Below, piece by piece: positions 4,314 to 40,546 of a DNA stretch of 64,000 nucleotides (positions within the stretch are counted from its first letter, which is position 1; each line of letters opens with the position of its first letter). The stretch is from Bdellovibrionales bacterium (lineage in GTDB: Bacteria; Bdellovibrionota; Bdellovibrionia; Bdellovibrionales; UBA1609), in the NCBI GenBank assembly GCA_965261545.1, contig CBDHDF010000011.1, forward strand, positions 448,001 to 512,000. The letters run 5' to 3'. The notes below the pieces were generated by a model, which saw only the letters and a list, made by a program, of their open reading frames with translations, was not told the DNA's origin and ran no database searches. A program made the translations under genes and the position numbers.

Positions 4314-4337
4314 CATTTTTTAGAAAGATGAGGAAAG

Positions 4338-6984: not shown

Positions 6985-7095
6985 TAGTGATTTTTTGTCT
7001 TTCTTACACATCATTTATAAAATAAACACCCCTTACATTTCTCTAACCAAGGAGGTTCGCGCCCACCGATTTACTATTACACATGGCAATATAGC

Positions 7096-7416
7096 ATGAT
7101 CTTTCACCCATTATCTTCGATAAGGAGGTCATTATTTCTCATGAAAAATCAAAAAAAGGCGGGAGAGATCAAGACATGCTCTAAGTGCTTCAGAGAGTTG
7201 CATTTAGATCAGTTTTATTCTAAAGGAAATCGCATAGATAGCTGTTGCAAGGCGTGTAAAAAAGCGCAAGTTCGGTCTACATATGTAGCCAGAAAACATC
7301 CCATAAATTTAAGAAAACTCCAAGAGTTTGTTACTATGGCCTGTGAGCTTGAAATGAAAAGGCTCGACCAGATTATCAACCAACTCGATGAAATCATCGA
7401 AAGGAGAACAAGATGA
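7096..7416 (+). CDS. small CxxC...CxxC zinc-finger protein (likely start 7141) coupled to the recombinase
   Basis: CSKC...CKAC. AGGAGG lies before ATG 7141. ATGA overlap with the LSR. Confidence 0.6.
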   Translation: MIFHPLSSIRRSLFLMKNQKKAGEIKTCSKCFRELHLDQFYSKGNRIDSCCKACKKAQVRSTYVARKHPINLRKLQEFVTMACELEMKRLDQIINQLDEIIERRTR

Positions 7417-24645: not shown

Positions 24646-27600
24646 TCAAGGAGATTGAGGGTTTGTGGGGTTCGCAGGATTGCTGACATCGATGACGAAG
24701 ACGTCGATATCGGTGCGGCGTGCTTCGGGGAGGCGATCGATCAGCAATTCTTGGAGTCTACCGGGAGTCTTGGGCTGCTCGATGTCATCGGGGTGCCTCT
24801 TCAATTTCTTTTGGGGTAGTACATTTTCTCCAAACCAGAGAACAATATAGACGCCACGGCCTTCTGCACGCCAATCCCGTGTATAGTTTTCGAGTTGGTC
24901 GTTGGCGGCGTTCCATACGTTGGGATGCCACTGCCCCTTGATTTCGGCCGGCAATCCAATGTTATTGCATATCGCAGCGATGTCTACCCGTTTTTGATTG
25001 GGCATATGCATTTCCGGTTCGAATCGGATGGACTCTGGCAATTGCTGCAAAATACATTCGATCATTCTATTGCGGCAGAAGTTTTCGTCCTGCGGTTCGT
25101 CTTTATCTTTCCAGTAAACTTCCCATATATCGGTATTGCTGCCTTGAATTCGTTCTTGGAGTTCTTCCAATCGATCCGCAAAGTAAGATCGCATGTCATC
25201 GATCGTCTCGGGCAAATCGTCCTTCATTACAGCTTGGAGTTCCTTGATCTTGGGCGGAACATAATCGTGGTCTCGCTGGACTCTGTGTTGGAGTGCCAAC
25301 GCATGTTTCAAGCAATTGATGTAGCTTGGAGCGTGGTTATCAATTAACCTTTGTAATGCTTCGGTTGCTTCGGACTGAGGGTGGCCAGCGATGGCGTCGA
25401 TTGCGTCTTGGATGAATTCTGTTGCGTCCCAAGGATTCAGGTTGTCCGGTGTAACTGTAACTGAATTTGACTGGTTGGTTAATGACCACGTTGTACCGAA
25501 GTTCTCGACAATGAAGGCTAATTGGTTTACAGAAAATCTATTGAAGTGGGCATCTCTTCTTTCCGGTGAGACCCGATCACGTATGAACCAAAGAAAGTCT
25601 TGATGGTCTTCTGCCGCTTTTTTAAGTAATGTGCGGTATTTATCGAAGTCAATGTCATAGCCCGCCGACAACCATAGGAGCCTCTCTCTGACTACACCAC
25701 AGCCACTCAATCTAGGGTCGACGGCGCTCGTCGCTAATGGGGAGTTTACCATGATGCGGTCACTTACCAAGTTACGTACTATTTTCAGTTGGGTCTCGTC
25801 GCTCCGGAGGGCACATATAAGTAGGGTCTCCTGGTTGGAGAGGGGCATTGCTTGGTAGCGAGATAGCCAATCGACAGCAAGTCGCCTCGCTAAGTTAGTA
25901 AGGTGAGAGTTATTAGTAAGTCGATATAACTCATTGATATGTTCAGAACCGCATTCAAGTTGAGGTTCAATGCTTGTACAAAAGTGTGTTTCCCAGTCGG
26001 ATTCTTTTTGGAATAGCACCCTTTCAATCTCCTCACTAATATTGTTTCCCATGGTGCTGAAAGTGAACTGTTGCAAAGCCAAAGCCATGTAGGTTGCAAA
26101 AAGCGTGTCTCGATTTACTGCATCAAGTGAATGATTACGGCGAAGCATCTCGGCGACACCGCAGATCATCGGGATTGTGGCATTATCAGACTTGTTATCG
26201 CAGTAAAGTTCAGCAATCTTCGAGGAACTCGGCAGGTCGTCACGTTCAAGCACGCTGATAAAGCCTAACATCACTCGTTCGCCGAGTTCTTCACCGAGAA
26301 AATCATGCATTCGGCTTTCTGGGGATGTGTTAGGGTCAAAAAGTTCATGCCCATTCAAACATGCGTGGTCCAAATAGACGAAGGCCGGTTTAGAAAGAGT
26401 GTAGATATCAACGGTGTCAATATCACTCACCTGCGCTGCAAGATTGTTGCAGTGCTGTTGAAAAACTTGGTCTCGTTTTGCTTTCCTCTCTACTTTTTGC
26501 TCCTTTTGCATGGTTTTCCACTCTGGCTCAGAAACAGGAATATTTATCAATTCATCGAGAATAGTCACTAATTTCTCATTGCCGTTTGCCACCTCTATGG
26601 CAGCTTTGTACACGACAGGCGCAAGGCCATTTTCGGTTTGTCCGAATTGCAAAAGATTGCGCCACATATCCGGGTCAATCGCCCCATTGTCTACACGAGT
26701 TCGCAAGGTTGGTAGAAGATCCGCAATATCTTTGGAATTTGGAAACAAATCCAGACCAGTACTGGGGAGGCGACATACCTTTTTCACAAAATTGTCTGCA
26801 CAGGAAGTCAAACATATATGTTTTTGAAGTGCTTGACGGAGTGCTTTATTGTCGCAGAATATTGAAGCTAACATTTTAACCATGTCACTGCAGTAGTCAA
26901 GGTCTCCGTTCCTCCACACAATCCATGACCATATGCGGCTGGGTTTAATCGTCGAATCAGCTGTGAGAATTTGAGCCATAAGGTAACTCAGAATGTCTAC
27001 GATGAATTGGCGTTTTGATGAATATTTGTTGTCATCGAATAGCGGCTTTGCATGCTTCGCTATGCCGTCAAGCAATGTGGGGAGTTGATTGGTGTTAAAG
27101 TTTTGGAAGACACTGTTAAGTAGGTGCTGAGGTTTGTACGATGCTGATGTGGCATTCGGATTATCCACAAACTTAGCATAATTGATAATAATGTCAATGA
27201 TAATCCTAAGAGACAGTGTGGATGCTTTAATATCAGCGAGGATATCGCCTGCTAACTGTGCAGAATCGGAGTCATTCAGGTTGAGGAGGCTGTTAACTAT
27301 TTCTTCCTGTTTTTTTTGATCAATATTAGTGTGGAGCGCCTTCCAGGCGTACAATCGCGAGTGAAAAGTGCGAGTCTGGTCGAGCATTATATTTTTGAGT
27401 GTCTGCACTAGTTCTTTTTCTTTCGCCAGTTTGGTCCCAGCCATCGCTTCGAGTAGGAGTTCGTTGAACTGCGTGGAGCATTTAGGCGCAATTTCCGAAA
27501 GAATCTCCTCTCGAAGCTCCGACCTCATCAGACCAGAGGCAGAATGCCTACCCCAGCCTTCCAATTTAAAATAGGAGTCTTGCTCGAAAAGTTTTTTGAG

Positions 27601-28761
27601 TCCAAAGAAGAGGGTTCTTGCTTGGCTAAGCTCAAGCCTCTCTGTATCGCCATAGAGTAGAACAGCGTAGGGATCAGCGTCGATGCAACGGCCGGCCAGC
27701 GCACTGCTGAAATGTGCCATCCATGCGTTCAGGCCACGTAGCGAGGTCGGTACACCTTCGTTTTGACGGAAGAGGTTGAATATTCGTTTTTGGGAGAGGC
27801 CATCATCAAAGCAACGTGCAAGCCATTTGGCACCGAGAAACTCTGCGATCACACGGTGAATATGTGAAAATTTGCATTCACTTTGACTTTGAAACAGGCG
27901 AGTTTTAAGCACATCATTTGCCGCTTTGCTGCGCGGAAGTTCTTTGATATCTGATATGTGCAGGAAGCCATCGGGCACATCTGAGTAGGGACCTGTGTAA
28001 ACGCCAGCGCAGTCACATAACAGCTGCATTGCACAGATTGCACCGGTGGCTAAGAGAAGTTCTTCTTTGTTCGTCATTACATGGGGATCTTCGTGATGGT
28101 ACTGATTTTCTTCTTTGAGCATGACACCACAAGCACTATCGAAGAGTTGGGCACGGGTGTTCGGGAGCGGATCTGAATTTTGTGCGACCTCGCCGAGCAT
28201 TCGTAGGGTTAGGGGATTTCCGTAGAGGGCCTCTATCCCACAATGCTCAAGGTGATTCAGGAGAACTTCAGCATCAATCTTCGGAAAATCTAACGACAAG
28301 AAGGAGTACGCATTGTCACGGGTAAAGGGTTGCAGGTGAAGCAGCCTAGGGACTACACCGTAGTCGTCTTTGATCTTGACTCGATCTACAGTCAACCAGT
28401 CGGCCTCACGGCAAGAGAGAACAAATTTGGGGTAGTTCATTGCCGAAAGCTTTTCGAGTACTTTTTCGATCGCGCTGCCGGGCGCAGCAGAAGCAATCTC
28501 GTCAAGCCCATCTATAATAATGACTCTTTGACCTGCGGAGATCAAAGAATCGGGTTTGGGAGTACGGGTGAGTTTGTCAGCGGAGATATACTTCGCACCG
28601 GGTTGTTTACTGAGTGCCTTGGTGAGTACGGTTTTTCCCAGACCTGGGTCACCGAGAATCACAACTGGACAATCAAATTCTCCGATTTTGTCTTGTTCTA
28701 GGGTTGTCCTCTCACACTCAGGGCCATCGTAGGCAAGTGTTCTCATAATTGGGGCGAGCAT
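24646..28761 (-). CDS. NACHT/STAND NTPase with C-terminal PD-(D/E)xK nuclease-like domain (Avs2-like candidate)
   Basis: GDPGLGKT, IIDGLDE, LSCR, GNPLTL. C-terminal EPE...RVDI...EIKGQWH...QL..Y...GVYIVLWFG. Confidence 0.75.
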   Translation of the reverse strand: MLAPIMRTLAYDGPECERTTLEQDKIGEFDCPVVILGDPGLGKTVLTKALSKQPGAKYISADKLTRTPKPDSLISAGQRVIIIDGLDEIASAAPGSAIEKVLEKLSAMNYPKFVLSCREADWLTVDRVKIKDDYGVVPRLLHLQPFTRDNAYSFLSLDFPKIDAEVLLNHLEHCGIEALYGNPLTLRMLGEVAQNSDPLPNTRAQLFDSACGVMLKEENQYHHEDPHVMTNKEELLLATGAICAMQLLCDCAGVYTGPYSDVPDGFLHISDIKELPRSKAANDVLKTRLFQSQSECKFSHIHRVIAEFLGAKWLARCFDDGLSQKRIFNLFRQNEGVPTSLRGLNAWMAHFSSALAGRCIDADPYAVLLYGDTERLELSQARTLFFGLKKLFEQDSYFKLEGWGRHSASGLMRSELREEILSEIAPKCSTQFNELLLEAMAGTKLAKEKELVQTLKNIMLDQTRTFHSRLYAWKALHTNIDQKKQEEIVNSLLNLNDSDSAQLAGDILADIKASTLSLRIIIDIIINYAKFVDNPNATSASYKPQHLLNSVFQNFNTNQLPTLLDGIAKHAKPLFDDNKYSSKRQFIVDILSYLMAQILTADSTIKPSRIWSWIVWRNGDLDYCSDMVKMLASIFCDNKALRQALQKHICLTSCADNFVKKVCRLPSTGLDLFPNSKDIADLLPTLRTRVDNGAIDPDMWRNLLQFGQTENGLAPVVYKAAIEVANGNEKLVTILDELINIPVSEPEWKTMQKEQKVERKAKRDQVFQQHCNNLAAQVSDIDTVDIYTLSKPAFVYLDHACLNGHELFDPNTSPESRMHDFLGEELGERVMLGFISVLERDDLPSSSKIAELYCDNKSDNATIPMICGVAEMLRRNHSLDAVNRDTLFATYMALALQQFTFSTMGNNISEEIERVLFQKESDWETHFCTSIEPQLECGSEHINELYRLTNNSHLTNLARRLAVDWLSRYQAMPLSNQETLLICALRSDETQLKIVRNLVSDRIMVNSPLATSAVDPRLSGCGVVRERLLWLSAGYDIDFDKYRTLLKKAAEDHQDFLWFIRDRVSPERRDAHFNRFSVNQLAFIVENFGTTWSLTNQSNSVTVTPDNLNPWDATEFIQDAIDAIAGHPQSEATEALQRLIDNHAPSYINCLKHALALQHRVQRDHDYVPPKIKELQAVMKDDLPETIDDMRSYFADRLEELQERIQGSNTDIWEVYWKDKDEPQDENFCRNRMIECILQQLPESIRFEPEMHMPNQKRVDIAAICNNIGLPAEIKGQWHPNVWNAANDQLENYTRDWRAEGRGVYIVLWFGENVLPQKKLKRHPDDIEQPKTPGRLQELLIDRLPEARRTDIDVFVIDVSNPANPTNPQSP

Positions 28762-28836
28762 TGGGGAACTCCATTCTGATGTCCTTTTAGTTTATAGGGT
28801 ATAACCATTTTCCATTCTTCTAAATCTTCTTCAAAA

Positions 28837-30336
28837 TTAAATCACAACACAAACCCAAGCTCCATGGGCACCTTTCTGATTACCAAAAGTTATCTTACCA
28901 CCCCATGATTCAATGTCGAGTCTGGCTGTGTAAAGGCCTAGGCCATGGCCGCCTTTTTTTCCGTAGGTGAAGCCTTGAGTGCCTATGTGAGGGAGGGCTT
29001 TGTCGCTGAAACCTGGGCCTTCATCTGTGATGCATATGGAGATGGAGTTGTCTTGCTCTTTCATATGAATTTTAATCTCGCCTATTTGGTCTACCTCTCC
29101 TTCTTTTAGGCTTTTGTGACCTTTGTGGTGACTATGGTGGTTGGTGTGGTCGCTGTGGTCGTGGTCTTTGAGATTGATGTAGCTGTCATGGTCGCCATCG
29201 CTTCCGGAGCTTGATTGGGAGGGGAAGTTTGGACGAAGATCCGTACGGGAGGGACTCAAGCTCATAGCTTCAATAGCATTGTTTAAGATATTGGTGATGG
29301 CAGCCTTAAAATCTATGGGGTCCACTTCTTTTGTGTATGAAGAGGAGAAGGGGCAGGATTGAACTTCTGAGATGACAAGGTCCTGCTTTTGGGAGTTTTG
29401 AAATCGAATTTCAGAGGCGGCTTGCTCAACAAGATTGTAGAGGTTCACTTTGGCAAGTGGTTTGTTTTTCTTGTATTCAAGAGCCTTGGAAACAGATTCT
29501 TCAATCTCTTGTATGGAACCTCTTAGCATCTCTTCTTTTTCTTTGTCAAAGCTATTTCTTAGGAGAGGGAGGATAGTATTTATATTGCTTAGAGGTGTTT
29601 TAATATTGTGAAGCACCTTTTGGGAGATCTCATGGGAGACTTTTTCTCTTGTGCTTTCAGAAACCATCTTTTTCATCTCATCCAGAGCATGGGAAAGATT
29701 CTTGATGGATTTAAAGGATCCCTTAAACTCTTGAGGAACGTTTTTATCAATCTCTCCTTTTTTCAGGAGGCGATTGAGAAGTAAGATAAATCGGTCAAGG
29801 TATAGATTCATTCCAAGTAGTGTCAATACCGTGAGAGCGATGGCGAAGAGGAAGTTCAATGAGAAGACCATGAGAACCTGAGGTGTTCCTAGGGCTCCAA
29901 AGGAATCTAAGGCGAATGTGATCTGAACGAGAAGCCCTTTGTTGATAAAGATACAATAGGCATGTTGGCCACTACCTGATTTGTAATAGGAAGAGGGCAT
30001 GTTAGGATTGCAAATAAATTTTGTTCCTGTGTTGGAGGTGATTTCTTCTTTTGATATGAGGTCATAAAATAAGATGGATTTTATTTTGACGCCCTCGGAT
30101 AGCTCTTTACTAAGAAGCTGCTCCATGACTCTTCGGTAGTTGCCTTCGCCAACATCTCTGGACAAAAGGCTTAAGGCGAGTTCAGATTGAGAAAGAACTG
30201 ATTCTTTGAGCAAGTTCTTTCTTTGAATATGAATAATAAAAAGTGTAAAGGTCAGGTTCAAAATAATAGCTATAAGAATAATCAGAGCAATAAGTTTTTT
30301 CTTACTTAAAGAACTAGGCCACGGGATGAACTTCAC
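28837..30336 (-). CDS. membrane sensor histidine kinase
   Basis: Two TM helices around a periplasmic domain. H-box LHNIKTPL, N-box NILNNAIEA, DEGPGF, GHGLGL. Confidence 0.9.
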   Translation of the reverse strand: MKFIPWPSSLSKKKLIALIILIAIILNLTFTLFIIHIQRKNLLKESVLSQSELALSLLSRDVGEGNYRRVMEQLLSKELSEGVKIKSILFYDLISKEEITSNTGTKFICNPNMPSSYYKSGSGQHAYCIFINKGLLVQITFALDSFGALGTPQVLMVFSLNFLFAIALTVLTLLGMNLYLDRFILLLNRLLKKGEIDKNVPQEFKGSFKSIKNLSHALDEMKKMVSESTREKVSHEISQKVLHNIKTPLSNINTILPLLRNSFDKEKEEMLRGSIQEIEESVSKALEYKKNKPLAKVNLYNLVEQAASEIRFQNSQKQDLVISEVQSCPFSSSYTKEVDPIDFKAAITNILNNAIEAMSLSPSRTDLRPNFPSQSSSGSDGDHDSYINLKDHDHSDHTNHHSHHKGHKSLKEGEVDQIGEIKIHMKEQDNSISICITDEGPGFSDKALPHIGTQGFTYGKKGGHGLGLYTARLDIESWGGKITFGNQKGAHGAWVCVVI

Positions 30337-31336
30337 CTTGCCTCCTTTCCATGATATCTTCTTTTAAAGATCCAGGTTGAAAAGGCCACATATTTTTCTT
30401 AGTCACTTGCACAGAGTAACCAGAAATTCTAAATTCTTTAAGGTGAAATATGTAAATATCGTCTATATGAAAATCACTGATTTTGTAGGTGCTTTTTTTG
30501 AGTTTGGAAAATCCTATTTTTTGAGTGGGAAAATAAGCATTTTGTTGTCTTTCTTCAAAAGCATAAAAATAAAAATGATCCACAAAATGAGTTACATTTT
30601 TAGATTTCCTTTGAGTCCTATCCTTCAATTTGTGAAATTCCCAATAAAATCTCCACGCTTCAAAGAACGCTTTTTCTAAGGATGAATAAATATTCTCATG
30701 ACAACCATATCCAAATATATTGTAAGGCACTTCATTTTGTGATATATGGCAACAAATGACAAAGAGTCCATAATCATTGGGGAGATGATAAAAATGAGAT
30801 TTGAGGTTATTCTTCATTCCTGAAAGAAGATTCAAAAGTCCCCATTTATAGATCCCAGTTATTTCTTGACACTCTTTCTTTCTGAGCCAAAAATCAAGAA
30901 CAACCTGTCTTTCAATGATCTCCCTGTAGGAGTTAAAAATGCCCATCAATGGATCCATGGAGAAACTTAGGCCATTGGAAGACTTTATTTGGTGTGTGTG
31001 GCTCTCAATTTTTTTAGAAAAATCAACCTTCAGCCCATTCATATTTTCATGAGAGATAGGTATTCTTTCAAAAAGTTCCCCAATACATCTCATTTGGGCT
31101 GTTTTTTGATTGTGCCCCTCACCAGTAGATTTGATGGTTTTTTTATTTATAAAAAGTTCACCCATATACCAGAAGAATGGTATAAGTGTTGGGCATCCAT
31201 TTGTATCTTTCATCTTTAATCGATCATCCTGAAGTAGGCAGTCAATGGATTTTTTAACGTCTGTGAAACGATATTTTTCCCCAAGTTTGTCTTTGGCGTC
31301 TGAGAAATGATTCTCTATGAGATGTGACACTCTCAT
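30314..31336 (-). CDS. YcaO-family protein
   Basis: GEG...A...GELFER, SSNG, EIIER and GYG...LEKAFFEA ATP-binding motifs. C-terminal HPVA. Confidence 0.8.
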   Translation of the reverse strand: MRVSHLIENHFSDAKDKLGEKYRFTDVKKSIDCLLQDDRLKMKDTNGCPTLIPFFWYMGELFINKKTIKSTGEGHNQKTAQMRCIGELFERIPISHENMNGLKVDFSKKIESHTHQIKSSNGLSFSMDPLMGIFNSYREIIERQVVLDFWLRKKECQEITGIYKWGLLNLLSGMKNNLKSHFYHLPNDYGLFVICCHISQNEVPYNIFGYGCHENIYSSLEKAFFEAWRFYWEFHKLKDRTQRKSKNVTHFVDHFYFYAFEERQQNAYFPTQKIGFSKLKKSTYKISDFHIDDIYIFHLKEFRISGYSVQVTKKNMWPFQPGSLKEDIMERRQGEVHPVA

Positions 31337-32847
31337 TCCTTATGCCAATCCCATAGGTTGAAGCTGCCATCAAAGTAATTCATCTCTTTGAGTTTATATT
31401 TACCTTTGGCACAGTAAACCATTCTTGTGTGCATGAGAGGCAAGATCATATAATTTTTTAGGAGCCCAAAATGAACCTCTTTAAGGAGGGAGATATATTT
31501 TGATCTATCGATTTCATTTTTTGACTTGTTTAAAAGTTCATTTAACTCTTTGTTGTCAGCGAAGAAGTTAAACAAAGGGTGATTGAATAAATAGATCATT
31601 TCCACAATGGGGTCCAAAGCGCTGACTCCAGAGTATATATACAAAAGGTCATATTCCTTTTTTTGTAAGAGGAGTGAATCACTCTTGGCATCTGAGAAAA
31701 TAATATTTAAATTCACACCAAAATCTTTGAGCTTCTCTTTTATCATAAAAGGTATAGGGCTTTCACCCATAATACTAAGGAGAAGTAAATTTATCTCCAA
31801 TTTCTCTTTTGTGGGCTGTGAATCATATAATTTTTCAATCTTTGATTCTTGAATTCTTGATATATTATTTTTTGTAAAAATTTGATCTGTTCTTTCTGCA
31901 ATTTCTTCATTGATTTTAGTATTTTTAAAGGCTTTCTTGATAAGAGAAAAAATATGTTTTCTTTTATCGTCAGTGTTCATTTTGTCAGAATTAACATTTG
32001 GAAGAAAGAATTCTGTGAGAGCAAATGCGCTGAGGTACTTTTGACCATCCAGATCCAAATATTTGATGCTCTTGGCATAATGGGACCCAACAAGTACGAT
32101 ATCATCTGCTTTACTGTAGTAGTCCATGGCCTCTTGCGTGTCGCCTATTTCAACGATATTGACTTTATCAGGGGAATCATCCCTGAGCAAAGGGTGGGAT
32201 GAGTGTCTTTTTAGGCTCATTTTTTGAGATGTGAAATTTGTTACCTGATAAGGTCCAGATAAATTGCTAAGATTTTCCTTTGAAGGGTTGTCTGGATAAT
32301 CCTTGGGAGCGACACTCATTTCTGGAATACTTAATTTATAGATGAGCGCATTGAGTGGGTTTTTGAGCTTTATTTCTATGGTGTTCCCATTGAGGGTCAT
32401 AGATTCATTAATATCTGCGCTTAACAAGGATTTGTAGATGTCTGAATGCTTCATCTTTGGAGAGGAGATGGCACGCTTCAGGCTCAAGAGAGTATCTTCA
32501 GGGGTAATGGGGGCGCCATCATGAAATATGTATTTACCAGATAAAGATAGGTTGAGGGTCTTTTTATCTTTGGAAAAAGACCAACCATCTGCCAGAGCAG
32601 TCTTTACGTCGGAGTTATTTCCAACTCGAACCACTGTTTCACCAATATTATTCAGTATGAAGATGCTCCAAAGGCTGGCTCCATCGGAGATATTCCACGA
32701 TCTTTCAAAGTGAAGGTTGGGAAAAATCACAGTGAGCTTATCTGGTGAAGAATTTTCTTGGTCATGGTTCTTATGATTCACAATAACTCCAATCAATACA
32801 ATAGCAATAATAGCGCAGACAAGAGTGCCAAGAAAAATTCTTCTCAT
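31333..32847 (-). CDS. family 5 (OppA/DppA-like) solute-binding protein with N-terminal anchor
   Basis: LADGWSFSKDKKT, FHDGAPITPED...SL, SGPY and LPLMH motifs. No permease or ATPase gene nearby. Confidence 0.85.
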   Translation of the reverse strand: MRRIFLGTLVCAIIAIVLIGVIVNHKNHDQENSSPDKLTVIFPNLHFERSWNISDGASLWSIFILNNIGETVVRVGNNSDVKTALADGWSFSKDKKTLNLSLSGKYIFHDGAPITPEDTLLSLKRAISSPKMKHSDIYKSLLSADINESMTLNGNTIEIKLKNPLNALIYKLSIPEMSVAPKDYPDNPSKENLSNLSGPYQVTNFTSQKMSLKRHSSHPLLRDDSPDKVNIVEIGDTQEAMDYYSKADDIVLVGSHYAKSIKYLDLDGQKYLSAFALTEFFLPNVNSDKMNTDDKRKHIFSLIKKAFKNTKINEEIAERTDQIFTKNNISRIQESKIEKLYDSQPTKEKLEINLLLLSIMGESPIPFMIKEKLKDFGVNLNIIFSDAKSDSLLLQKKEYDLLYIYSGVSALDPIVEMIYLFNHPLFNFFADNKELNELLNKSKNEIDRSKYISLLKEVHFGLLKNYMILPLMHTRMVYCAKGKYKLKEMNYFDGSFNLWDWHKE

Positions 32848-33131
32848 TTCTCGTCAAGGCAAACTGTAACTGGACGATTTTCTGCCAACTCAAGTATGGG
32901 TTCAATATGCGATGGATCAACAGGTACGACCTCACTGGTTTCTTCTAGGCAAATTATGATCTCTTTATTTTTATCAAAAATTTGATAGCATCCTGGTTCC
33001 AAAATGTTTATGTCCTCCTCTTGTTCTGAGCCTTGAGATCCTGGGCCTTGAGAATAGCCAGCGTTGGCCAAGAACATAGGGGTTAAGATAAAAGAACCGA
33101 TTGCAAGTAGGCATATTTTTAATATTTTCAT
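32844..33131 (-). CDS. 95-aa secreted protein, candidate peptide precursor
   Basis: GGAGG RBS. Sec-type signal ending ANA, then GYSQGPGSQGS and an acidic region with 3 Cys. ATGA overlap with the SBP gene. Confidence 0.75.
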   Translation of the reverse strand: MKILKICLLAIGSFILTPMFLANAGYSQGPGSQGSEQEEDINILEPGCYQIFDKNKEIIICLEETSEVVPVDPSHIEPILELAENRPVTVCLDEK

Positions 33132-33177
33132 GACTATTCCTCCATATATTATTTTTATTGGTTGTTTGGTTGTTTGT

Positions 33178-34758
33178 TTATTGTTGGTATGTCTTTTCTT
33201 TACTCAATGAAACATTGTATCTATCCATTTTGGATAAAATATTAGATTCCGAGATACCCAAGAGTTGAGCCATCTCTTTTTTGGTCTGACATCTTAGAGA
33301 GGCTTCTTCGAGAAGTTTTTTCTCAAACATTCTCTTGAACTCTTTGATCCCTGGGAATTTTTCAGTTAAAAAACGAGTGGGTAGACTCTCAAAATCCGAG
33401 TATTCAATATACTCGGTGGGTTTTTTGCTATGAAACACAGACTTTCTTGAAACCCCTAAGATAATTTTCCAATTAGAAAAATCCAAAGCCCCATTCCTGT
33501 CAGATTTAGAGCTTATCATAAGTCTTTCAAGGTCATTTCTGATTCCTCGGATGTTAAAGGGTATATTGTCTCGATGGAGATATTCCTTTAAGTCATCGGG
33601 AAGATCTTCATAGGAAAAAATTTTTCTCAGATTCTCTTTCTGAAGGTTATTGATAATAGATTGACAGATATGGGGGATGTCCTCCTTTCGTTCTTCAAGG
33701 GGTGGGAGGGGGATATCAAAGGTGCAGATTCTCGCATATAAATCTTCACGAAATTCCTTTTTCTCCACCATCTCTTTTAGATTTTTGTTTGTGGCAAGGA
33801 TAATGCGGGCCGTAGTGGTGAAATTTTTATTCCCCCCCACGCGGCAAAATTCTCGTTCCTCAATCACCTTTAAGAGCTTGGCTTGAACCTCAAGGCTTGC
33901 TTCTCCAATTTCATCAAGAAACAGGTCCCCACCATTGGCGAGTTCAAAAAGCCCCTGTTTTGCTGTGTTAGCCCCAGTAAAAGCCCCTCGTTCGTGGCCA
34001 AAGAGTGTGCTGTCGGCAAGGTCTTTGGGTATATTTGCCATATTGATATTAAAAAAGGGGCGGTTCTTTTGCTGTAGAAACACAGCTCTCAAAGATCCAA
34101 GTCTCTTAGCTGCCACTGTTTTTCCTAGACCTGACTCACTCAAGAATAAAACAGGTGTGGAGTATTGGGCCAGTGTTTTCAGTTGTATCTCTATGCCTTG
34201 CATAGCTGAAGATTTATAAACATATGCTCCCATGGGCTGTTTATCCATCATTTTTTCTCGAACTCTTTGGAGTTCTAGCTTGGCTTTTTTGAGGGCTTTG
34301 AGAATTTGGGCATTTCTGTATGCCAGATAGTCGGGACTCGTGCTTTTCACAACATATCCACAGGCTCCCATTTGTATGGCCTCCACGGCAAGCCTTGTAT
34401 CATCATGGCCCGTCACCACAAGAATCTGGGTGGCAGGCTGAATATCAAGTATCTCTTGAATGTGCTGCATTCCATCTACATTTATCCCGCGATCATCCAC
34501 GCCGAGGTCACGATCCAATAGGATGACATGCAATGTTTGTCTACGAAGTATTGAGAAGGCATCACTTATGTTTGAAGCTAGGTGAATATTAATTTCATTA
34601 AAGGAAAGCTCCAATTTTTGAAGAAGATCCATCACACTCATTCGGTTCACTTTGAGCGCTGATTCCTCATCATCAATAATGAGGACACTCACTTTAGGAT
34701 CTTTATGCTCATGCTCATGGTTTCTCATTGGGCCAAGCCTCCTGTTAGAAAAATTCAA
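33178..34758 (-). CDS. NtrC-family sigma54-dependent response regulator
   Basis: Receiver (IIDDE, LLD, K), ESGLGKT, intact GAFTGA, FLDEIG, FREDLYAR, C-terminal HTH. Confidence 0.92.
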   Translation of the reverse strand: MNFSNRRLGPMRNHEHEHKDPKVSVLIIDDEESALKVNRMSVMDLLQKLELSFNEINIHLASNISDAFSILRRQTLHVILLDRDLGVDDRGINVDGMQHIQEILDIQPATQILVVTGHDDTRLAVEAIQMGACGYVVKSTSPDYLAYRNAQILKALKKAKLELQRVREKMMDKQPMGAYVYKSSAMQGIEIQLKTLAQYSTPVLFLSESGLGKTVAAKRLGSLRAVFLQQKNRPFFNINMANIPKDLADSTLFGHERGAFTGANTAKQGLFELANGGDLFLDEIGEASLEVQAKLLKVIEEREFCRVGGNKNFTTTARIILATNKNLKEMVEKKEFREDLYARICTFDIPLPPLEERKEDIPHICQSIINNLQKENLRKIFSYEDLPDDLKEYLHRDNIPFNIRGIRNDLERLMISSKSDRNGALDFSNWKIILGVSRKSVFHSKKPTEYIEYSDFESLPTRFLTEKFPGIKEFKRMFEKKLLEEASLRCQTKKEMAQLLGISESNILSKMDRYNVSLSKEKTYQQ

Positions 34759-34820
34759 GAGAAGTCGTTGTTTGGATATTTTTGAAAAATTATTTTATTT
34801 ATTTTTAAAAGTTATTGTTT

Positions 34821-34849
34821 CTTTTATACCTTTCCGGCCTCTTTGTCAA
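34821..34849 (-). promoter_or_regulatory. possible sigma70 promoter for the regulator/YcaO operon
   Basis: TTGACA-N17-TAAAAG on the minus strand. Confidence 0.4.
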
Positions 34850-34890
34850 GAGAAGATCGAGAGAAATTATTACATGCTCTATTTTTGTAT

Positions 34891-34935
34891 ATTCTGAAAA
34901 CAGAACTTTTCAATTATAAATTCTAAAAATAGAAT
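34891..34935. promoter_or_regulatory. tandem palindromes, candidate bEBP enhancer sites
   Basis: ATTCTGAAAACAGAAC (34891-34906) and ATTCTAAAAATAGAAT (34920-34935). Confidence 0.55.
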
Positions 34936-34989
34936 AATTCAAGATATCAAGAATTAAGTATATTCAATAACTTAGCTTATTTTCAGAGT

Positions 34990-35005
34990 TGGCAAGAAAC
35001 ATGCA
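34990..35005 (+). promoter_or_regulatory. sigma54 -24/-12 promoter facing the sigma/transfer operon
   Basis: TGGCAAGAAACATGCA (GG-N10-GC). IHF-like ATTCAATAACTTA at 34962-34974. Confidence 0.65.
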
Positions 35006-35198: not shown

Positions 35199-35855
35199 AT
35201 GAATAAATTTTACACACCTGAGATCGTAGCAATGGCATGCAATTTTACAGCATCTCGGTGGAAGGAAGAAAATGAAACCTTAACCCTTCATGCACTGAAG
35301 GCACACTATGTGGAGATATCAATGAAAAAGAACAAGATAAGCCAACCTTGGATGAATCATAAGAATCAATTGAAATCTAACAAAGAGATATTAGAAATAT
35401 GCCCCCATTGGTCAACGGGGCAGTGGGAGGGGTATCTTTCTTCCACTGATGGAAAGCGTACAGAAAGCCTTATGGAGGACGCACACTTTACAGAAAATAC
35501 CTCTCAAGAAGATTATAAGAGCGTCCTCCCCTCGGCTTCAAAAGAGAAGAACCTTAAGCTCCTAAAGGAAACTTTGGGTGAAATTCTCAAACAACTTTCA
35601 GATAACCAAAGGCAAGTCATTCATTGCCTTTTCTGGGAAAACCTTAGCTTTGGTGAGATATCAAAAGAACTTGGCGTCAGTCGAGTGGCCATCCTGCAAA
35701 CAAAAGACCGTGCTCTTAAAAAAATATCTAAACTCTTATTGAAGGAAGTTTCAAGAAGAAATGGAAGCTTTGAGGAGGTGAAAACCAAAAAACAGTGTTT
35801 AAAATCAAAATCTAAAAATTCTTATTCCAATACAGATCCAATGGTAGCCAGCTAG
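35199..35855 (+). CDS. sigma70 region-4 HTH protein
   Basis: LSDNQRQVI...ENLSFGEISKELGVSRVAI...RALKKI. Confidence 0.8.
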   Translation: MNKFYTPEIVAMACNFTASRWKEENETLTLHALKAHYVEISMKKNKISQPWMNHKNQLKSNKEILEICPHWSTGQWEGYLSSTDGKRTESLMEDAHFTENTSQEDYKSVLPSASKEKNLKLLKETLGEILKQLSDNQRQVIHCLFWENLSFGEISKELGVSRVAILQTKDRALKKISKLLLKEVSRRNGSFEEVKTKKQCLKSKSKNSYSNTDPMVAS

Positions 35856-35937: not shown

Positions 35938-36207
35938 ATGACTATGAAAACTAGATTTTTAATTGAAGATGATATGATTGTAAGATCACTTGTGAAGCAA
36001 CTTCCTCGCCAACAACGCAAAGCTATTCTGCTTCGCTTTTGGAAGGATTACTCCTTACCTGAAATTGCAATGAACCTAAACATCACCACAAAGAAAGCTT
36101 CTAAATTATTAAAGAAAGGATTGTTGAAAATAAAATTTGGGTGCATAGAGCATCCAAATTTTTTAAAGTCAGCAAAGTGTTCTTTTGGAAGAAATGAAAT
36201 TCACTAA
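35938..36207 (+). CDS. small sigma70 region-4-like protein
   Basis: LPRQQRKAILLRFW..YSLPEIA..LNIT. Confidence 0.7.
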   Translation: MTMKTRFLIEDDMIVRSLVKQLPRQQRKAILLRFWKDYSLPEIAMNLNITTKKASKLLKKGLLKIKFGCIEHPNFLKSAKCSFGRNEIH

Positions 36208-36230: not shown

Positions 36231-36674
36231 ATGGTAAATGTATTTGATATATTTAAAGGTCACAGGAATAAGGATGGGAAAGTTCAAAGAATCAGAAAAT
36301 TAGGTCATGCCTACTATTGTGAAGATTCTGGCTTCTGCGAAGTCAAGATTCATGGGTCTAGTGACTCACAATATATTTTAGAGGCTGAAAACAGTGTTCT
36401 CAAAGACTATGACTACAATATATTTTACGAGGACCTCGAAAATAAAGATTTGGAACGAGTGGGAGTGGGCTACCTTTTGCATGGGCCTAATGTGGGACTG
36501 GTTCGTCTTGAATGGGATTCTTACGATAACTCTGATGCTTATATCGACTTGTCGCCCTCTTCACCTCATTCCTCCTCTCGATTAGAAAATTCGCAAACCA
36601 TTCAAAATTCTCAAGATCCTCAAGGATCTCAAGAATCTCAAAACTTTGAAATTTTTGTGAAAGAAATTGCCTAG
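36231..36674 (+). CDS. hypothetical protein
   Basis: GAAGGAG RBS. Beta-rich, weakly similar to the next ORF (G.A.Y...G...KI...VG.G). Confidence 0.6.
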   Translation: MVNVFDIFKGHRNKDGKVQRIRKLGHAYYCEDSGFCEVKIHGSSDSQYILEAENSVLKDYDYNIFYEDLENKDLERVGVGYLLHGPNVGLVRLEWDSYDNSDAYIDLSPSSPHSSSRLENSQTIQNSQDPQGSQESQNFEIFVKEIA

Positions 36675-36789
36675 TGATGGGCTCTATCCATCCCTTCCGG
36701 GCGAAAGGTTCAAAGGAAAAAACTAAGACTAAAGCTAAAGCCTATATCAACATCAACTTTAAAAACTATAATTTTATGGAGGCATTGAC

Positions 36790-37188
36790 ATGAGTAACAT
36801 TGACATGAGTAACAAAAAAAATAATCACTCTCTCTCTAAGAAAAGATCAAATGAGGTTCTCATTTTAGGTTGGATGGACCCAAGAAATGATATTGTTCAC
36901 CATGCTGGAGTGGCTTTTTACAATCCAAACTATGGTGAGTATCTCTTAAAGATTGATGAAGAGCCCAATGAGAAGCAATACTTTTTAAAAGCCTTTGAGT
37001 GCAGTGATGATGGGTCCACCAGCTACAGAATGGAACTTGTCATCAAGCGCAAGAATGGCCAATTTCTCAAGCGTAAACTTGTAGGCTTAGGGCATCGCCA
37101 CAAAGGAACTTATGGGAATGTCTTTATTGACTACGGGTCCAAGTTTAAAACTCTTGTGCTGTACCTCAAGGAATATCCATGTGTTTAA
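36790..37188 (+). CDS. hypothetical protein
   Basis: GGAGG RBS. Overlaps the pilin gene start. Confidence 0.6.
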   Translation: MSNIDMSNKKNNHSLSKKRSNEVLILGWMDPRNDIVHHAGVAFYNPNYGEYLLKIDEEPNEKQYFLKAFECSDDGSTSYRMELVIKRKNGQFLKRKLVGLGHRHKGTYGNVFIDYGSKFKTLVLYLKEYPCV

Positions 37189-37481
37189 GAAGCCTAGGAC
37201 TTATATGTCTACTCATGGGAATTTTTCTTTTGTCTAAGGACTTCACCTTGGCAGGTCTAGGGGGCATCGGTTTTGAAAGTCGTATTCAGAGCCTCACTAA
37301 TAGTCTTATATCGGTGATGCTGCCCACCATTGCCATTTTAGGGTTGGTTTACGCCGCTATTCAAGCGGCCATGGGGGATGAGGGAGCAAAAAAGCGAATG
37401 CTCCTCGTGATTGTTGCCTGTATGATTGGTTTTCTTGCCCCTATGATTATTCGCTGGTTTCAATCGGCGGTGGGAGGGTGA
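37179..37481 (+). CDS. VirB2/TrbC-like pilin
   Basis: 100 aa with a signal peptide and two hydrophobic helices, upstream of VirB3/VirB4. Confidence 0.7.
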   Translation: MCLRSLGLICLLMGIFLLSKDFTLAGLGGIGFESRIQSLTNSLISVMLPTIAILGLVYAAIQAAMGDEGAKKRMLLVIVACMIGFLAPMIIRWFQSAVGG

Positions 37482-37612
37482 TAGCAAAAAAAATGACAAA
37501 TGCTAAATGGTGGATGCATCTAGGTGATGGAGATTATTCGTGAGAGGGAGATCATCCGTGAGAGGATAATGAGATATGAATATGATAGAGATCAGGCAAG
37601 GGGGCTTAAATA

Positions 37613-37963
37613 ATGGAGATCAGAAGATCGGAAGTGCACCGAAATCTTGATGCTAAGTTTAAGGTTGGGGGGCTTGAGGCCCTCGACCTTTTTATTTCTC
37701 TTATTCTTGGAGCCATTATGAGCCTTTGTTTTTCTGAAACAATTTTAGAATTTCCCATGGTTTTTGGAATTCCCATGCTGGTTCTTGCCATCTTGTACTT
37801 TGGGAAAAGAGGCAAGCCCGAAGGTTTCCTACTTGATACTCTTCGCTTTTATCTTGAGCCAGGTTTTTTCTCATCGGGGCAAGAGCCAAGGGAAATTTAT
37901 CGGATGAGGAAAAAAATTTATGATAATTCCTCCTACAAAGAAAACCAATGCAAGAAACTGTAA
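37613..37963 (+). CDS. VirB3-like membrane protein
   Basis: Two TM segments, VHRNLD...GGLE N-terminus, directly before VirB4. Confidence 0.6.
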   Translation: MEIRRSEVHRNLDAKFKVGGLEALDLFISLILGAIMSLCFSETILEFPMVFGIPMLVLAILYFGKRGKPEGFLLDTLRFYLEPGFFSSGQEPREIYRMRKKIYDNSSYKENQCKKL

Positions 37964-37984
37964 AACACCAATGCAAAAAAACAA

Positions 37985-40546
37985 ATGAAAGGAAGTCCAA
38001 TGAAAAAAAACCACATGAAAGGAAATCAGAACTCTATGGATGCCCTCGCAAGTGAGTTGGAATTTTGGCACTTTGATGAAGATATAATGGTTTTTAGGGA
38101 TGGGTCCCTTGGGAGCGGCTTCCAGCTCTCAGGCTTTGATATGACCTGCGCCACCAATGAGCAAATCAATCAAATGACCCAGCACCTTGAAGACCTTATG
38201 GTGGCCTCAGAAGAAGGGCTTAAGTTTCAAGTTCTTTACAAACTCTCCCCTTATGTTGAGAAACTTATTGAGGATCACCGAAAGCTGTCTGAGAAAATAG
38301 AAGGACCTTACCAGAGAGTCGTCCAGGCTCGCCTCGGGTTCTATCGTCAAAACCAGATGGAGAAGAAATACTTTTTCCCTGAGATTTACTTCTTTGTTCG
38401 CAGCCAGCCCTTGGGAACTCAAAAACAGGGGCTTTTTTCTTCAAGCCACCACTTTACCTCTCTCCTAGAAAAAGACTTTGAGCAGGGAAAAAGAAAATTT
38501 ATGCGTTCTCTTCATCAGGTGGAGTCTCACCTTGTTTCCGCAGGGCTAAGCCCCAAGCCTTTGGTCCGTGAAGCTTGGTTCCAGCTTATTTTTGAACACC
38601 TCAATTTCGAGAGGTTTGAACGAAGCCCGGAGGGGCGAAGGGAAAAAGTAGACATTCCCCATTATCGTCCACCTAAAACCCTCTTTGACCCTTCCGTAAG
38701 TGAGCAACTCACTCTCACTGATTTCATATGGGATAAAGATGCTATCTCTATGGGAGGCTATAAATTTCGCACACTCAGTCTTGCCACCCTCCCCGAAGGA
38801 CAAACTTGGGCCTCCATGGCTCATGTTTTTTCCACGCTGCCCTTTCACTTTTGGATAAGTCAGTCCATTCATCTCTTGAACCAGAGGAAAGAAAAAGGCT
38901 CCCTAGAACTCAAGAGAAGAATCGCCTACTCCATGGCTTCGGGAAGTCAGAATGTCAGTGACCTTGATTCAGAGAACAAGTTAGGGCAAATAGAAGGGCT
39001 CTTGTCCCATCTTATTGAAGGTTCAGAGAGATTGGTTTCTTCAGACTTTAATGTGATTATTTGGGCAAAATCTCAAGAAGAGCTTGATGATAAAACCGAC
39101 GAGATTTTTAAAACCTTTCGTTTGCTCAACCAAGCTGAGGGATTGCAAGAGACCTTGGCTGGAAAAACAGCTTTTCTTAAATCTCTTCCAGGATGTTGCG
39201 AGGGACTTCGTCACAAGAAGATGAAGTCCAGTAATGCCGCCCACCTTATGCCGGTCTTTGCCAATTGGCGAGGAAACCCAAGGCCCGTATGTCTCCTTCC
39301 CACAAGAGATGGGGAGCTTTTCTCACTGGACCCCTACGCCGAACACCTTCCCTCATGGAATGGCATTGTTTTTGGCTCCTCAGGAAGTGGCAAGAGTTAC
39401 ACGCTGGTTCAACTTATGGCCATGTTCTATGGAAAGGTCACCCGTAGTCCATCGGGAAAAGTTCATAGGCCAAGAATTGTGTGGATTGACAACGGGGCTT
39501 CATCGAAAAGGCTCATTGAAGTTCTAGATGGTGAATTTGTGGATTTTAGCTTGGAGTCGGATTTGTGCCTTAATGTGTTTGACCTCAAGAAGGGGGAAAC
39601 CCAACCAAGTTCCCATAGAGTTCGCACCATCCTCGCCGTGCTTGAAATGATTCTCAAGGATGAAGATCAAAAAAGTCTTGGCAAGAGGGAGAAGGCTCTT
39701 TTAGAAGAGCAGATTTATAAAGTCTATAAAATTCATAGTGAAGAAGAGCGCGAAGAATATGGAGAAGAGCTAAGAAAATTGCCAACACTGTCTGATTTTA
39801 AATCCCTCTTAGATGGTCATCGTGACCCTAAGATGAGGCGGTTTGGAGAAATCCTCTATAGTTGGACAGGTTCTTCATCTTATGGTCACATGCTTGATGG
39901 TTCCACCAATGTGAAGCTCTCAGAAGACCTTGTCTCTGTGGAAGTTCGCCACTTAAATGACTACCCCGACCTTAAGGATGTCATACTTTTGATTTTAACA
40001 TCTTATATTCAAGATGTGGCTTCGTCGGATATCGAAAGGGAGTATCTTCTGATTATTGACGAAGCAGAAAGACTCTTACAATCAGAGCTAGCAAGGCAGG
40101 TGGTTATCACCTGTTATCGCACTTGGCGAAAATTTAAAAGTGGCATTTGGTGTCTGAGTCAGAATTACAAAGACTTTATGATGGATGACTCCCTTAAAGA
40201 CGCTCTGATGACCAACACCACCAATATTATTATCCTTCCTCAGCGTAAAATTGACTGGAATCATTTCCAGCAAACCTTTGACTTCAATGATGTTCAGGTG
40301 GAGCGAATCAAGAGCTTATCCATATGCAAAGGGGAGTACAGTGAAATGTATTACCTTCAAGGAGATAGGGACACCATTTTACGGTTGACTCCCGAACCCT
40401 TGAGTCATTGGTTTTCCACATCCGATGCCAACCACAAGACTCGCATCTCCCATGTCGAGACTGAGTTTCCAGAGATGAGTCAACTGGATGTTTTGGAGTA
40501 TTTGGCTTTTTCACAACCAGAGGGTGAGGAGGCCAAAGAGCCCTGA
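37985..40546 (+). CDS. virB4: VirB4/TraC-like T4SS ATPase
   Basis: 853 aa. GSSGSGKS, IDNGAS, LNVFD, IIDEAE and RK...LSQ motifs. Confidence 0.88.
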   Translation: MKGSPMKKNHMKGNQNSMDALASELEFWHFDEDIMVFRDGSLGSGFQLSGFDMTCATNEQINQMTQHLEDLMVASEEGLKFQVLYKLSPYVEKLIEDHRKLSEKIEGPYQRVVQARLGFYRQNQMEKKYFFPEIYFFVRSQPLGTQKQGLFSSSHHFTSLLEKDFEQGKRKFMRSLHQVESHLVSAGLSPKPLVREAWFQLIFEHLNFERFERSPEGRREKVDIPHYRPPKTLFDPSVSEQLTLTDFIWDKDAISMGGYKFRTLSLATLPEGQTWASMAHVFSTLPFHFWISQSIHLLNQRKEKGSLELKRRIAYSMASGSQNVSDLDSENKLGQIEGLLSHLIEGSERLVSSDFNVIIWAKSQEELDDKTDEIFKTFRLLNQAEGLQETLAGKTAFLKSLPGCCEGLRHKKMKSSNAAHLMPVFANWRGNPRPVCLLPTRDGELFSLDPYAEHLPSWNGIVFGSSGSGKSYTLVQLMAMFYGKVTRSPSGKVHRPRIVWIDNGASSKRLIEVLDGEFVDFSLESDLCLNVFDLKKGETQPSSHRVRTILAVLEMILKDEDQKSLGKREKALLEEQIYKVYKIHSEEEREEYGEELRKLPTLSDFKSLLDGHRDPKMRRFGEILYSWTGSSSYGHMLDGSTNVKLSEDLVSVEVRHLNDYPDLKDVILLILTSYIQDVASSDIEREYLLIIDEAERLLQSELARQVVITCYRTWRKFKSGIWCLSQNYKDFMMDDSLKDALMTNTTNIIILPQRKIDWNHFQQTFDFNDVQVERIKSLSICKGEYSEMYYLQGDRDTILRLTPEPLSHWFSTSDANHKTRISHVETEFPEMSQLDVLEYLAFSQPEGEEAKEP

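Follow-up and report, generated by a model that had tools for sequence, protein, structure and literature searches.

A candidate YcaO-based peptide-signalling operon beside the transfer genes of a predicted conjugative element in Bdellovibrionales

A five-gene operon and its conserved core

The stretch of DNA analysed here (the window) comprises 64,000 nucleotides of contig CBDHDF010000011.1 from a Bdellovibrionales bacterium. Near its middle lies a minus-strand operon (28837-34758) coding for a stand-alone YcaO enzyme, a small exported protein, a solute-binding protein and the two halves of a two-component system, which stands back to back with the transfer genes of a predicted integrative and conjugative element (ICE). 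An earlier note, made from the sequence alone, had proposed that the operon specifies a system in which a YcaO-modified peptide signals to a kinase and thereby controls conjugation. All five co-oriented reading frames that it described are present:

28837..30336, minus strand: sensor histidine kinase, 499 amino acids (Pfam HATPase_c 8.4e-13; HisKA 0.0056, a weak match)
30314..31336, minus strand: compact stand-alone YcaO, 340 amino acids (Pfam PF02624 6.9e-13)
31333..32847, minus strand: family-5 (OppA/NikA-type) solute-binding protein, 504 amino acids (Pfam SBP_bac_5 6.1e-20)
32844..33131, minus strand: small exported protein, 95 amino acids, the presumed precursor (no Pfam family)
33178..34758, minus strand: NtrC-type response regulator, 526 amino acids (Pfam Response_reg 3.3e-14, Sigma54_activat 1.5e-53, HTH_8 6.8e-4)

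The ATGA overlaps at 32847-32844 and 31336-31333 can be read directly from the sequence, and the 23-nucleotide overlap of the YcaO and kinase genes (30314-30336) was deduced from the ends of the reading frames; the paralogous locus L003 also has a 23-nucleotide overlap. The binding protein is indeed an orphan, as a family scan of 49 open reading frames (ORFs) of the window found neither permease nor ATP-binding cassette (ABC) ATPase families (BPD_transp, ABC_tran). The G+C content is 0.33 over the YcaO and binding-protein genes (30001-32000), 0.45 in the adjoining 2 kb downstream (28001-30000, with the greater part of the kinase gene) and 0.38-0.40 across 4 kb on the upstream side.

Members of the YcaO family proper are scarce. 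A word search of 5.8 billion clusters recovered 18 of them, and a HMMER search of 1.84 billion representatives gave 18 matches at E<=1e-30, 61 at <=1e-10 and 692 at <=1e-3. The single YcaO protein matched none of the genomes of 60 relatives, and the profile matched 29 of the 401 genomes of the phylum, six of them strongly. Scans with the YcaO alignment returned no relative from metagenome_contigs and two loci only from genome_contigs. The named sources of the homologues are metagenome-assembled genomes of Bacteriovoracales and Bdellovibrionales. The genome of the window itself carries four PF02624 genes, every one of which lies in a module of this kind beside type IV secretion genes. L003 is a 74%-identical paralogue 250 kb away, with the same five genes in the same order and with the same overlaps, and with the transfer genes, in a second copy, on its divergent side. 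The modules L038 and L039 are near-identical to each other and far more distant from that of the window; they consist of a regulator, a 117-residue exported protein, a binding protein, a YcaO and a kinase. L038 (G000:C11:436000-448000, module at about 2666-8947) ends 3 kb to the left of the window in the opposite orientation and has homologues of the pilin cluster on its divergent side; L039 lies on contig C2.

We compared eight close loci (the window, L003, L004, L005 and L034-L037) and 23 distant ones from Bdellovibrionota, the latter detected with E values from 1e-13 to 6e-4. A small ORF with a signal peptide, an SBP_bac_5 gene, the YcaO gene and a kinase gene follow one another in that order in all eight close loci. 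The sigma-54 regulator is present in six of the eight, and in five the divergent side carries transfer genes (L037 being too short for a judgement); both features are missing from L005 and L036. Among the distant loci a kinase gene is next to or near the YcaO gene in 19 of the 23. Nine have an SBP_bac_5 gene recognised by Pfam, and five more have an ORF of about 500 codons at that place without a Pfam match; the four that show neither kinase nor binding protein were seen with 1.5-kb flanks only. The reading frames are open and free of internal stops at all YcaO loci.

The conserved core is thus a set of four genes, for the small exported protein, the binding protein, the YcaO and the kinase. 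Its recurrence in all close and most distant loci, in several arrangements, argues that the association is more than chance. There are at least three gene orders (binding protein-YcaO-kinase; YcaO-binding protein-kinase-regulator; and a GNAT gene and YcaO beside an OmpR-type pair), and this variation points to functional coupling rather than inherited synteny. We are highly confident that the five genes of the window form one functional unit.

The association with conjugation, on which the earlier proposal leaned, is mixed. Linkage to type IV secretion genes recurs in L003, L004, L034, L035 and L038, on the divergent side, and in L048 and L050, near the module. The idea that the unit belongs specifically to ICEs did not survive the comparison: L005, L036 and several others are unlinked, and the chromosomal loci L005, L036, L040-L042, L044, L045 and L049 have neither sigma-54 regulator nor transfer genes. 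In L036 a strong -24/-12 site (TGGCACCTCCGTTGCT, at 8004 on the minus strand) lies just after the kinase gene and faces a MotA/ExbB-type operon, with no regulator gene adjacent; this hints at a different output of the same cassette.

The YcaO enzyme and its candidate substrate

A search of the product of 30314-31336 against PF02624, as the earlier note had advised, gave a match at 49 bits against a cut-off of 25.7, spanning positions 111-275 only of the 325-position profile. The protein has no signal peptide. Its AlphaFold2 (AF2) model is confident (predicted local distance difference test, pLDDT, 89.4; predicted template-modelling score, pTM, 0.90) and, as modelled, the protein is a whole, compact YcaO domain. 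The top structural matches of this model in Foldseek are the Methanopyrus kandleri and Methanocaldococcus jannaschii YcaO proteins (6ci7, 6peu), followed by McbD, Escherichia coli YcaO (EcYcaO) and LynD; the matches to 6ci7, 6peu, 6gos, 4q85 and 4v1t have E values of 3e-12 to 1e-6 and template-modelling (TM) scores of 0.54-0.64 over alignments of about 345-435 columns, gaps counted. A sequence profile searched against solved structures recovered only azoline formers (McbD 7.2e-5, TruD 1.9e-4, LynD 5.3e-3), with residues 118-242 aligning with TruD and LynD over their SNG/ELVER region.

In an alignment of 17 YcaO homologues, all of which bear a precomputed PF02624 assignment and which go down to 32% identity to the window protein, four blocks are invariant: GE..ER (86-91), SNG (120-122), YRE..ER (E..ER at 139-143) and EKA..E.WR (K..E..R at 222-229). 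We take these to be the ATP- and Mg-binding motifs of the superfamily. The C-terminus carries HP[VI][AG], of which HP is invariant across the 17. The motif blocks suggest that the enzyme is catalytically active, and we presume it to be an ATP-dependent peptide-backbone-modifying enzyme. That it might instead be a decayed, non-catalytic remnant, serving only as a scaffold or on its way to being lost, would accord with the Pfam match covering half of the profile and with a length below that of most YcaOs; the confident complete fold model, the invariance of the nucleotide/Mg-type blocks down to the most divergent homologue and the intact frames at every locus leave this notion with next to no weight.

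The kind of modification is less readily assigned. Like the azoline-forming YcaOs (McbD, LynD/TruD and SagD; TIGR03604), which are its best sequence matches among solved structures, the enzyme has a neighbouring candidate substrate with a Cys, Ser or Thr in its core, as azoline-forming cyclodehydratases need. It differs from them in size (340 residues against about 400-780), in ending with HP[VI][AG] rather than PxPxP, and in that they have an E1-like or RiPP recognition element (RRE) partner or fusion (RiPP, a peptide made on the ribosome and modified after translation). Neither an E1-like/Ocin-ThiF partner nor a fused RRE is found in the operon, and a search of the genome (96.8% complete) gave no match to TIGR03882. 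TIGR03604, the SagD-type cyclodehydratase model, is its sole NCBIfam match, at 49.4 bits, far short of its cut-off of 219.25. TfuA (PF07812) was not found in the genome by a search whose positive control was detected in Methanosarcina. An FMN (flavin mononucleotide)-dependent azoline dehydrogenase is absent from the window; two of the 17 distant loci with long flanks have genes of such a type, a ThcOx/nitroreductase protein in L056 and a nitroreductase in L052. Genes for B12-radical-SAM and GNAT proteins occur in L005, L054 and L055, and major facilitator superfamily (MFS) genes in L005 and L042. Neighbours of these kinds are typical of peptide tailoring and speak for peptide chemistry.

The 95-residue protein encoded upstream was claimed to be secreted, and it has a Sec signal peptide of the expected type (residues 1-24, ending in ANA). 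An acidic middle with two Cys residues follows, and the C-terminal motif is RPVTVCLDEK. When the seven close small proteins are aligned, Pro87 is invariant in all of them and is followed two residues later by T or C, the core motifs being PVTVC, PTTFS, PTCIT, PVTVC, PTTIS, PICGP and PICDP. The distant small proteins end in TIC, VIC, RTC, PTC or NC motifs, or have Ser/Thr at the matching place. Most of the aligned proteins have an acidic helical D-x3-[IL]-[ED] stretch before the core, and the mature forms span 30-190 residues with helical acidic middles. All 21 small ORFs have a hydrophobic N-terminus resembling a signal peptide, with AxA-type cleavage sites in those read. Of the 21, 14 have a Cys within the last 16 residues, against 69 among 355 other ORFs from these loci (Fisher 8e-6, a value that overstates the enrichment, as the small ORFs were chosen by inspection and the loci are related to one another). 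By its layout the protein looks like a leader-plus-core precursor, the Sec signal peptide excepted. When the YcaO was modelled in complex with the mature part of the small protein (residues 25-95), ATP and two Mg ions, three runs, made without folded controls, gave discordant scores (0.01, 0.73 and 0.02).

One rival reading is that the YcaO modifies some other target, such as the binding protein, the kinase or a housekeeping protein, for example by thioamidation, and that the small protein is an unrelated accessory. Some thioamidating YcaOs work without TfuA, which softens the lack of a TfuA gene in this genome as a point against such chemistry. The best fold matches are archaeal YcaOs that thioamidate McrA (6ci7, 6peu), which like the window enzyme are stand-alone, of similar size and without an RRE partner. 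According to PMC13063428, the stand-alone E. coli enzyme thioamidates the ribosomal protein uL16, possibly acting on the folded protein. These stand-alone enzymes are only 10-14% identical to that of the window, and their targets are housekeeping proteins and not exported neighbours. The T/C beside the invariant Pro, with its exchanges of Cys for Ser or Thr, suits cyclodehydration better, two distant loci have azoline-oxidase-like genes, and the small ORF is present in all eight close loci. We therefore consider another target improbable and retain the small protein as the candidate substrate.

Sensor, regulator and the divergent promoter

The AF2 model of the binding protein (pLDDT 84.3) has a cluster-C binding-protein fold and a hydrophobic helix at residues 2-33. 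No obvious cleavage site or lipobox is seen in this helix, by which the protein would be anchored in the membrane. Its nearest solved relative is AapF (7kz8/7kz9), by sequence (3.2e-21, 18% identity) as by fold (E 1.2e-31, TM 0.75-0.79); NikA, AgaA, OppA and PrgZ (4faj, 4e-11 by profile) follow. In NCBIfam the protein comes closest to nickel and staphylopine binders, without reaching the cut-off of any. AapF of Pseudomonas sp. PDC86 was solved, in the words of the structure entry's title, with 'a signaling molecule HEHEAA'. It differs in acting as the binding subunit of an import system that supplies a LuxR-type receptor in the cytoplasm; the protein of the window has a neighbouring kinase and no permease. 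In all eight close loci the binding-protein gene lies beside the kinase/YcaO unit, and by analogy with known pairs (LuxPQ, TorTS and CBP-ChiS) we presume it to be a co-receptor of the kinase. L034 (10691-13647) and L035 (6472-9446) have two tandem binding-protein genes between the small ORF and the YcaO gene, each about 50% identical to the single one of the window.

The kinase has the H-box HNIKTPL, and its two predicted membrane segments would flank a periplasmic stretch of about 120 residues. A His-rich insert (…DHDHSDHTNHHSHHKGH…) precedes its ATPase domain at residues about 385-415; the shorter kinases of L004, L034 and L035 (435-454 residues) probably lack it. The regulator is a complete NtrC-type protein, with a receiver domain, an AAA+ sigma-54 activator domain and a Fis-type helix-turn-helix (HTH) domain, and its GAFTGA motif is intact (GHERGAFTGA), as had been claimed. 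Its NCBIfam matches are to NtrC/LuxO-like models and lie below cut-off (LuxO 5.9e-66). The genome has rpoN (221 bits).

The following features occupy the region between the regulator gene and the transfer genes, and the beginning of the latter:

34892..34934, no strand assigned: two palindromes, TTCTGAAAACAGAA (34892-34905) and TTCTAAAAATAGAA (34921-34934), presumed regulator-binding sites
34913..34942, minus strand: weak sigma-70-like promoter candidate for the operon, TTGAAT-18-TATAAT, 10 of 12 matches, overlapping the second palindrome
34963..34974, plus strand: block TTCAATAACTTA resembling a site for integration host factor (IHF), between the palindromes and the promoter, nearly invariant in a four-locus alignment
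34990..35005, plus strand: sigma-54-type -24/-12 promoter TGGCAAGAAACATGCA, with TTGGCA-N7-TGCA invariant in the window, L003, L004 and L034
35199..36207, plus strand: two proteins with only a sigma-70 region-4 HTH (35199-35855 and 35938-36207; Sigma70_r4 2e-11, Sigma70_r4_2 3.9e-10)
36231..40546, plus strand: start of the transfer operon, with two unknown genes, a pilin gene, an unknown gene and TraC/VirB4 (Pfam, TIGR02746)
37179-37481, plus strand: TrbC/VirB2-type pilin (Pfam TrbC 6.7e-6)
37985-40546, plus strand: TraC/VirB4 ATPase (TraC_F_IV, P-loop_TraG; TIGR02746 5.4e-77)

The -24/-12 promoter TGGCAAGAAACATGCA lies 194 nucleotides ahead of the ATG at 35199. Matches to the sigma-54 consensus with two mismatches number 48 in the window against 45 expected, which is chance level; the promoter is credible because it is conserved in three other loci. 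The intergenic elements come in the order TTCTGAAAACAGAA, TTCTAAAAATAGAA, TTCAATAACTTA and TTGGCAAGAAACATGCA, and all four line up between the window, L003, L004 and L034, amid flanks that have diverged, although the YcaO proteins of these loci are only 47-74% identical. L004 and L034 have the full TGGCAC-N5-TTGCA; at the corresponding position of L035 no clear -24 element is seen. We presume that TTCAATAACTTA resembles the IHF consensus. The pattern of the palindromes (TTCT-N6-AGAA), itself derived from this site, occurs four times in the window, where 0.58 matches are expected; the two palindromes account for two of the four. Read from the sequence, the layout is the classic one of enhancer sites, bend site and -24/-12 promoter, and it faces the region-4 regulators and the pilin/VirB4 genes. 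Conservation in four loci thus backs the earlier claim of a sigma-54 promoter pointing into the transfer genes, and it is probable that the regulator drives this promoter at 34990.

The five-gene operon itself has no conserved sigma-54 site facing it in the window. A minus-strand GG-N10-GC candidate (AGGAATATCTATTGCA) was dropped, as it is not conserved in L003, and sigma-70-like sites in the region are no more numerous than in shuffled sequences. L043 and L046 do have a strong -24/-12 site, directly upstream of the regulator gene, and L046 has another toward the divergent gene; hence, auto-induction exists in some relatives.

Many azol(in)e peptides are antibiotics or metallophores, and lantibiotic clusters have auto-induction and immunity. 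The YcaO product could accordingly be an antimicrobial, toxin or metal-binding peptide, with the two-component system and binding protein providing auto-induction or immunity and the linkage to transfer genes being that of cargo. The below-cut-off matches of the binding protein to nickel and staphylopine binders and the His-rich insert of the window kinase would fit. Each precursor, however, offers one candidate modification site, neither an ABC exporter nor an immunity pump accompanies it, the conserved promoter faces the regulators and transfer genes, away from the biosynthetic genes, and the genome has four copies, each at the head of a transfer cluster. We judge this explanation quite unlikely.

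The two region-4 HTH proteins are likely second-tier regulators, with homologues at the same place in L003, L004, L035 and L038. Further to the right are genes for TrbI, an FtsK-type coupling protein (FtsK_SpoIIIE), a Replic_Relax protein and a large serine recombinase. The last (58026-59954, plus strand) has its 3' end overlapping tRNA-Ala (59917-59992, minus strand), which probably marks the integration end of the element. The combination of transfer genes, coupling protein, Replic_Relax and a recombinase at a tRNA gene identifies the region, as predicted from its genes, as an ICE. Two genes on the opposite strand lie inside the transfer cluster, for a DUF285 protein (40596-41864, minus strand) and a fructosamine-kinase-family protein (46030-46881, minus strand). 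At its far end is a second AAA+ protein resembling sigma-54 activators (53779-54642, minus strand), which has neither receiver nor HTH and has DVGAPRG in place of GAFTGA; it might act on the main regulator as a decoy or poison subunit.

To the left of the kinase gene is a defence island with EruA, HamA plus helicase, and SNF2-Mrr. Directly downstream of the kinase gene is that for a 1371-residue NACHT protein (24646-28761, minus strand; NCBIfam antiphage EruA, 1121 bits against a cut-off of 1000). The others are HamA with a DEAD helicase, Hachiman-like, at 10241-14513, and defence-like genes comprising an SNF2 helicase-Mrr nuclease fusion (471-4313), an AAA_13 protein (4720-6984) and a serine recombinase (7413-9323). 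Two mirror-image YcaO modules, that of the window and L038, flank the island.

A possible make-and-sense circuit

The foregoing suggests a route by which the operon might couple a self-made signal to conjugation. The 95-residue pre-protein would be made in the cytoplasm, where the YcaO, with ATP, would activate the backbone amide next to the C-terminal P-x-[T/C] (Thr89/Cys91 in PVTVC), most likely giving a thiazoline or methyloxazoline. The product would then be exported by Sec, with signal peptidase cutting off residues 1-24, and in the periplasm the anchored binding protein may bind it, whole or trimmed, and relay the ligand state to the kinase, as in LuxP-LuxQ and CBP-ChiS. The kinase would govern the phosphorylation state of the NtrC-type regulator, ligand binding turning the output either on or off. 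The regulator, in turn, would bind the two TTCT-N6-AGAA palindromes and open the sigma-54 promoter at 34990-35005, probably aided by bending at TTCAATAACTTA, and this promoter would drive the two region-4 HTH regulators and the pilin/VirB4 operon. If the signal reached other cells, the circuit might sense density. For this full chain, from the YcaO-modified, Sec-exported peptide through the binding protein and kinase to the sigma-54 regulator and the transfer genes, we see the case as evenly balanced. The proposal of RiPP-type signalling that controls ICE transfer accordingly keeps its YcaO, orphan binding protein, conserved unit, NtrC-type activator and promoter, and loses its restriction to ICEs.

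Several observations weigh against this circuit, besides the overstated cysteine enrichment. A Cys near the C-terminus is lacking in seven of the 21 small ORFs. We know of no characterised RiPP precursor with a Sec signal peptide, and with such a signal the modification must precede export. The E1-like or RRE partner and the PxPxP tail are all missing from the YcaO system, and with TIGR03604 scoring far below its cut-off, membership of the azoline clade is not established; the best fold matches, moreover, are thioamide formers. At the output end, the -24/-12 element of the window deviates from the consensus at two positions. As the core cassette occurs in some loci without transfer genes or the sigma-54 regulator, ICE control is one use of it and not its definition. 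Finally, no outer-membrane exporter is evident, so that sharing of the signal between cells is not assured.

The last point bears on a further alternative, namely that the cassette is a private envelope sensor, whose binding protein and kinase respond to something outside the cell (for example a peptide, a metal chelate or a product of prey or recipient), with the YcaO-modified small protein kept in the periplasm as a fixed co-factor or brake of the receptor. Besides the lack of an exporter gene in the operon, such a role would accord with the nearest characterised relatives of the binding protein (AapF with HEHEAA, NikA, CntA and OppA), which bind outside signals, chelates or peptides, with the mature small proteins being large for a diffusible pheromone and with the service of the cassette to outputs other than ICEs. 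It leaves unexplained why a modifying enzyme and a candidate substrate accompany the receptor in nearly every locus, and why L005 and L042 have tailoring and MFS genes, which are typical of exported peptides. We regard the private sensor as unlikely, if the most plausible of the alternatives to a make-and-sense circuit.

Among known systems, the Vibrio pathway from LuxP-LuxQ through LuxU to LuxO shares with the operon a non-transport periplasmic binding protein coupled to a membrane kinase and an NtrC-type sigma-54 output. It differs in that LuxP is of another binding-protein family, its ligand AI-2 (autoinducer-2) is not a peptide and is made by LuxS from metabolism, and there is no link to conjugation. 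The closest in logic are staphylococcal agr (AgrD, AgrB, AgrC and AgrA) and the auto-induction of nisin, where precursor, modifying enzyme, kinase and regulator are in one operon and the modified peptide is the ligand. The agr system has another class of maturation enzyme, no binding-protein co-receptor and direct sensing by the kinase, and is Gram-positive; the present system has, in contrast to it, a Sec signal peptide on the precursor and a regulated promoter that, in the window, faces away from the operon. Neither an AgrB nor an AgrD family came up in the Pfam and NCBIfam scans. The window system falls outside the SagD-type cyclodehydratases, the TfuA-type YcaOs and agr alike. A precedent for a family-5 (PF00496) binding protein that controls a sensor kinase is the CBP-ChiS pair of Vibrio (PMC8050422). 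CBP, whose ligands are chitin oligosaccharides and not self-made, works with an ABC transporter as well.

Mobile elements that time their transfer with signalling genes of their own include, in Gram-positive bacteria, pCF10 (cCF10/PrgZ) and ICEBs1 (PhrI-RapI), which use unmodified peptides, and, in Gram-negative ones, the Ti plasmid (TraI/TraR, with an N-acyl-homoserine lactone, AHL). PrgZ is, like the protein here, an element-encoded family-5 binder, in its case of a pheromone, and is matched by the binding-protein profile. PrgZ delivers its peptide to the Opp permease, to be sensed inside the cell, and no peptide is involved in AHL systems; compared with these, sensing here would be periplasmic, by way of a kinase and a sigma-54 activator. 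We found no description of an architecture joining a YcaO, a binding protein, a kinase and a sigma-54 regulator in full-text searches, from which subscription journals are largely absent.

On a wider view, which we offer tentatively and hold to fall somewhat short of an even chance, peptide communication of this kind would extend across the Bdellovibrionota. A Sec-exported pheromone bearing one YcaO-made backbone heterocycle, or another amide modification, at a C-terminal P-x-T/C would be read by a transporter-less OppA-type protein and a kinase. Conjugative elements would have captured the cassette, four times in the genome of the window, so that donors, before they assemble the transfer apparatus, could gauge one another's numbers or tell which neighbours lack the element.

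Self-made peptide signals are textbook matter in Gram-positive bacteria and rare in those with an outer membrane, and to our knowledge YcaO enzymes serve in making antibiotics, cofactors and protein thioamides and not in signalling. The circuit, if true, would give YcaO chemistry a new job, and would add a new kind of precursor, exported by Sec, and a new arrangement of receptors, in which an orphan peptide-binding protein is joined to a kinase and a sigma-54 activator. The small size of the cassette and its defined promoter output make it directly testable in a heterologous host. For the predatory bacteria, whose gene exchange is little studied, it would provide a concrete switch for conjugation.

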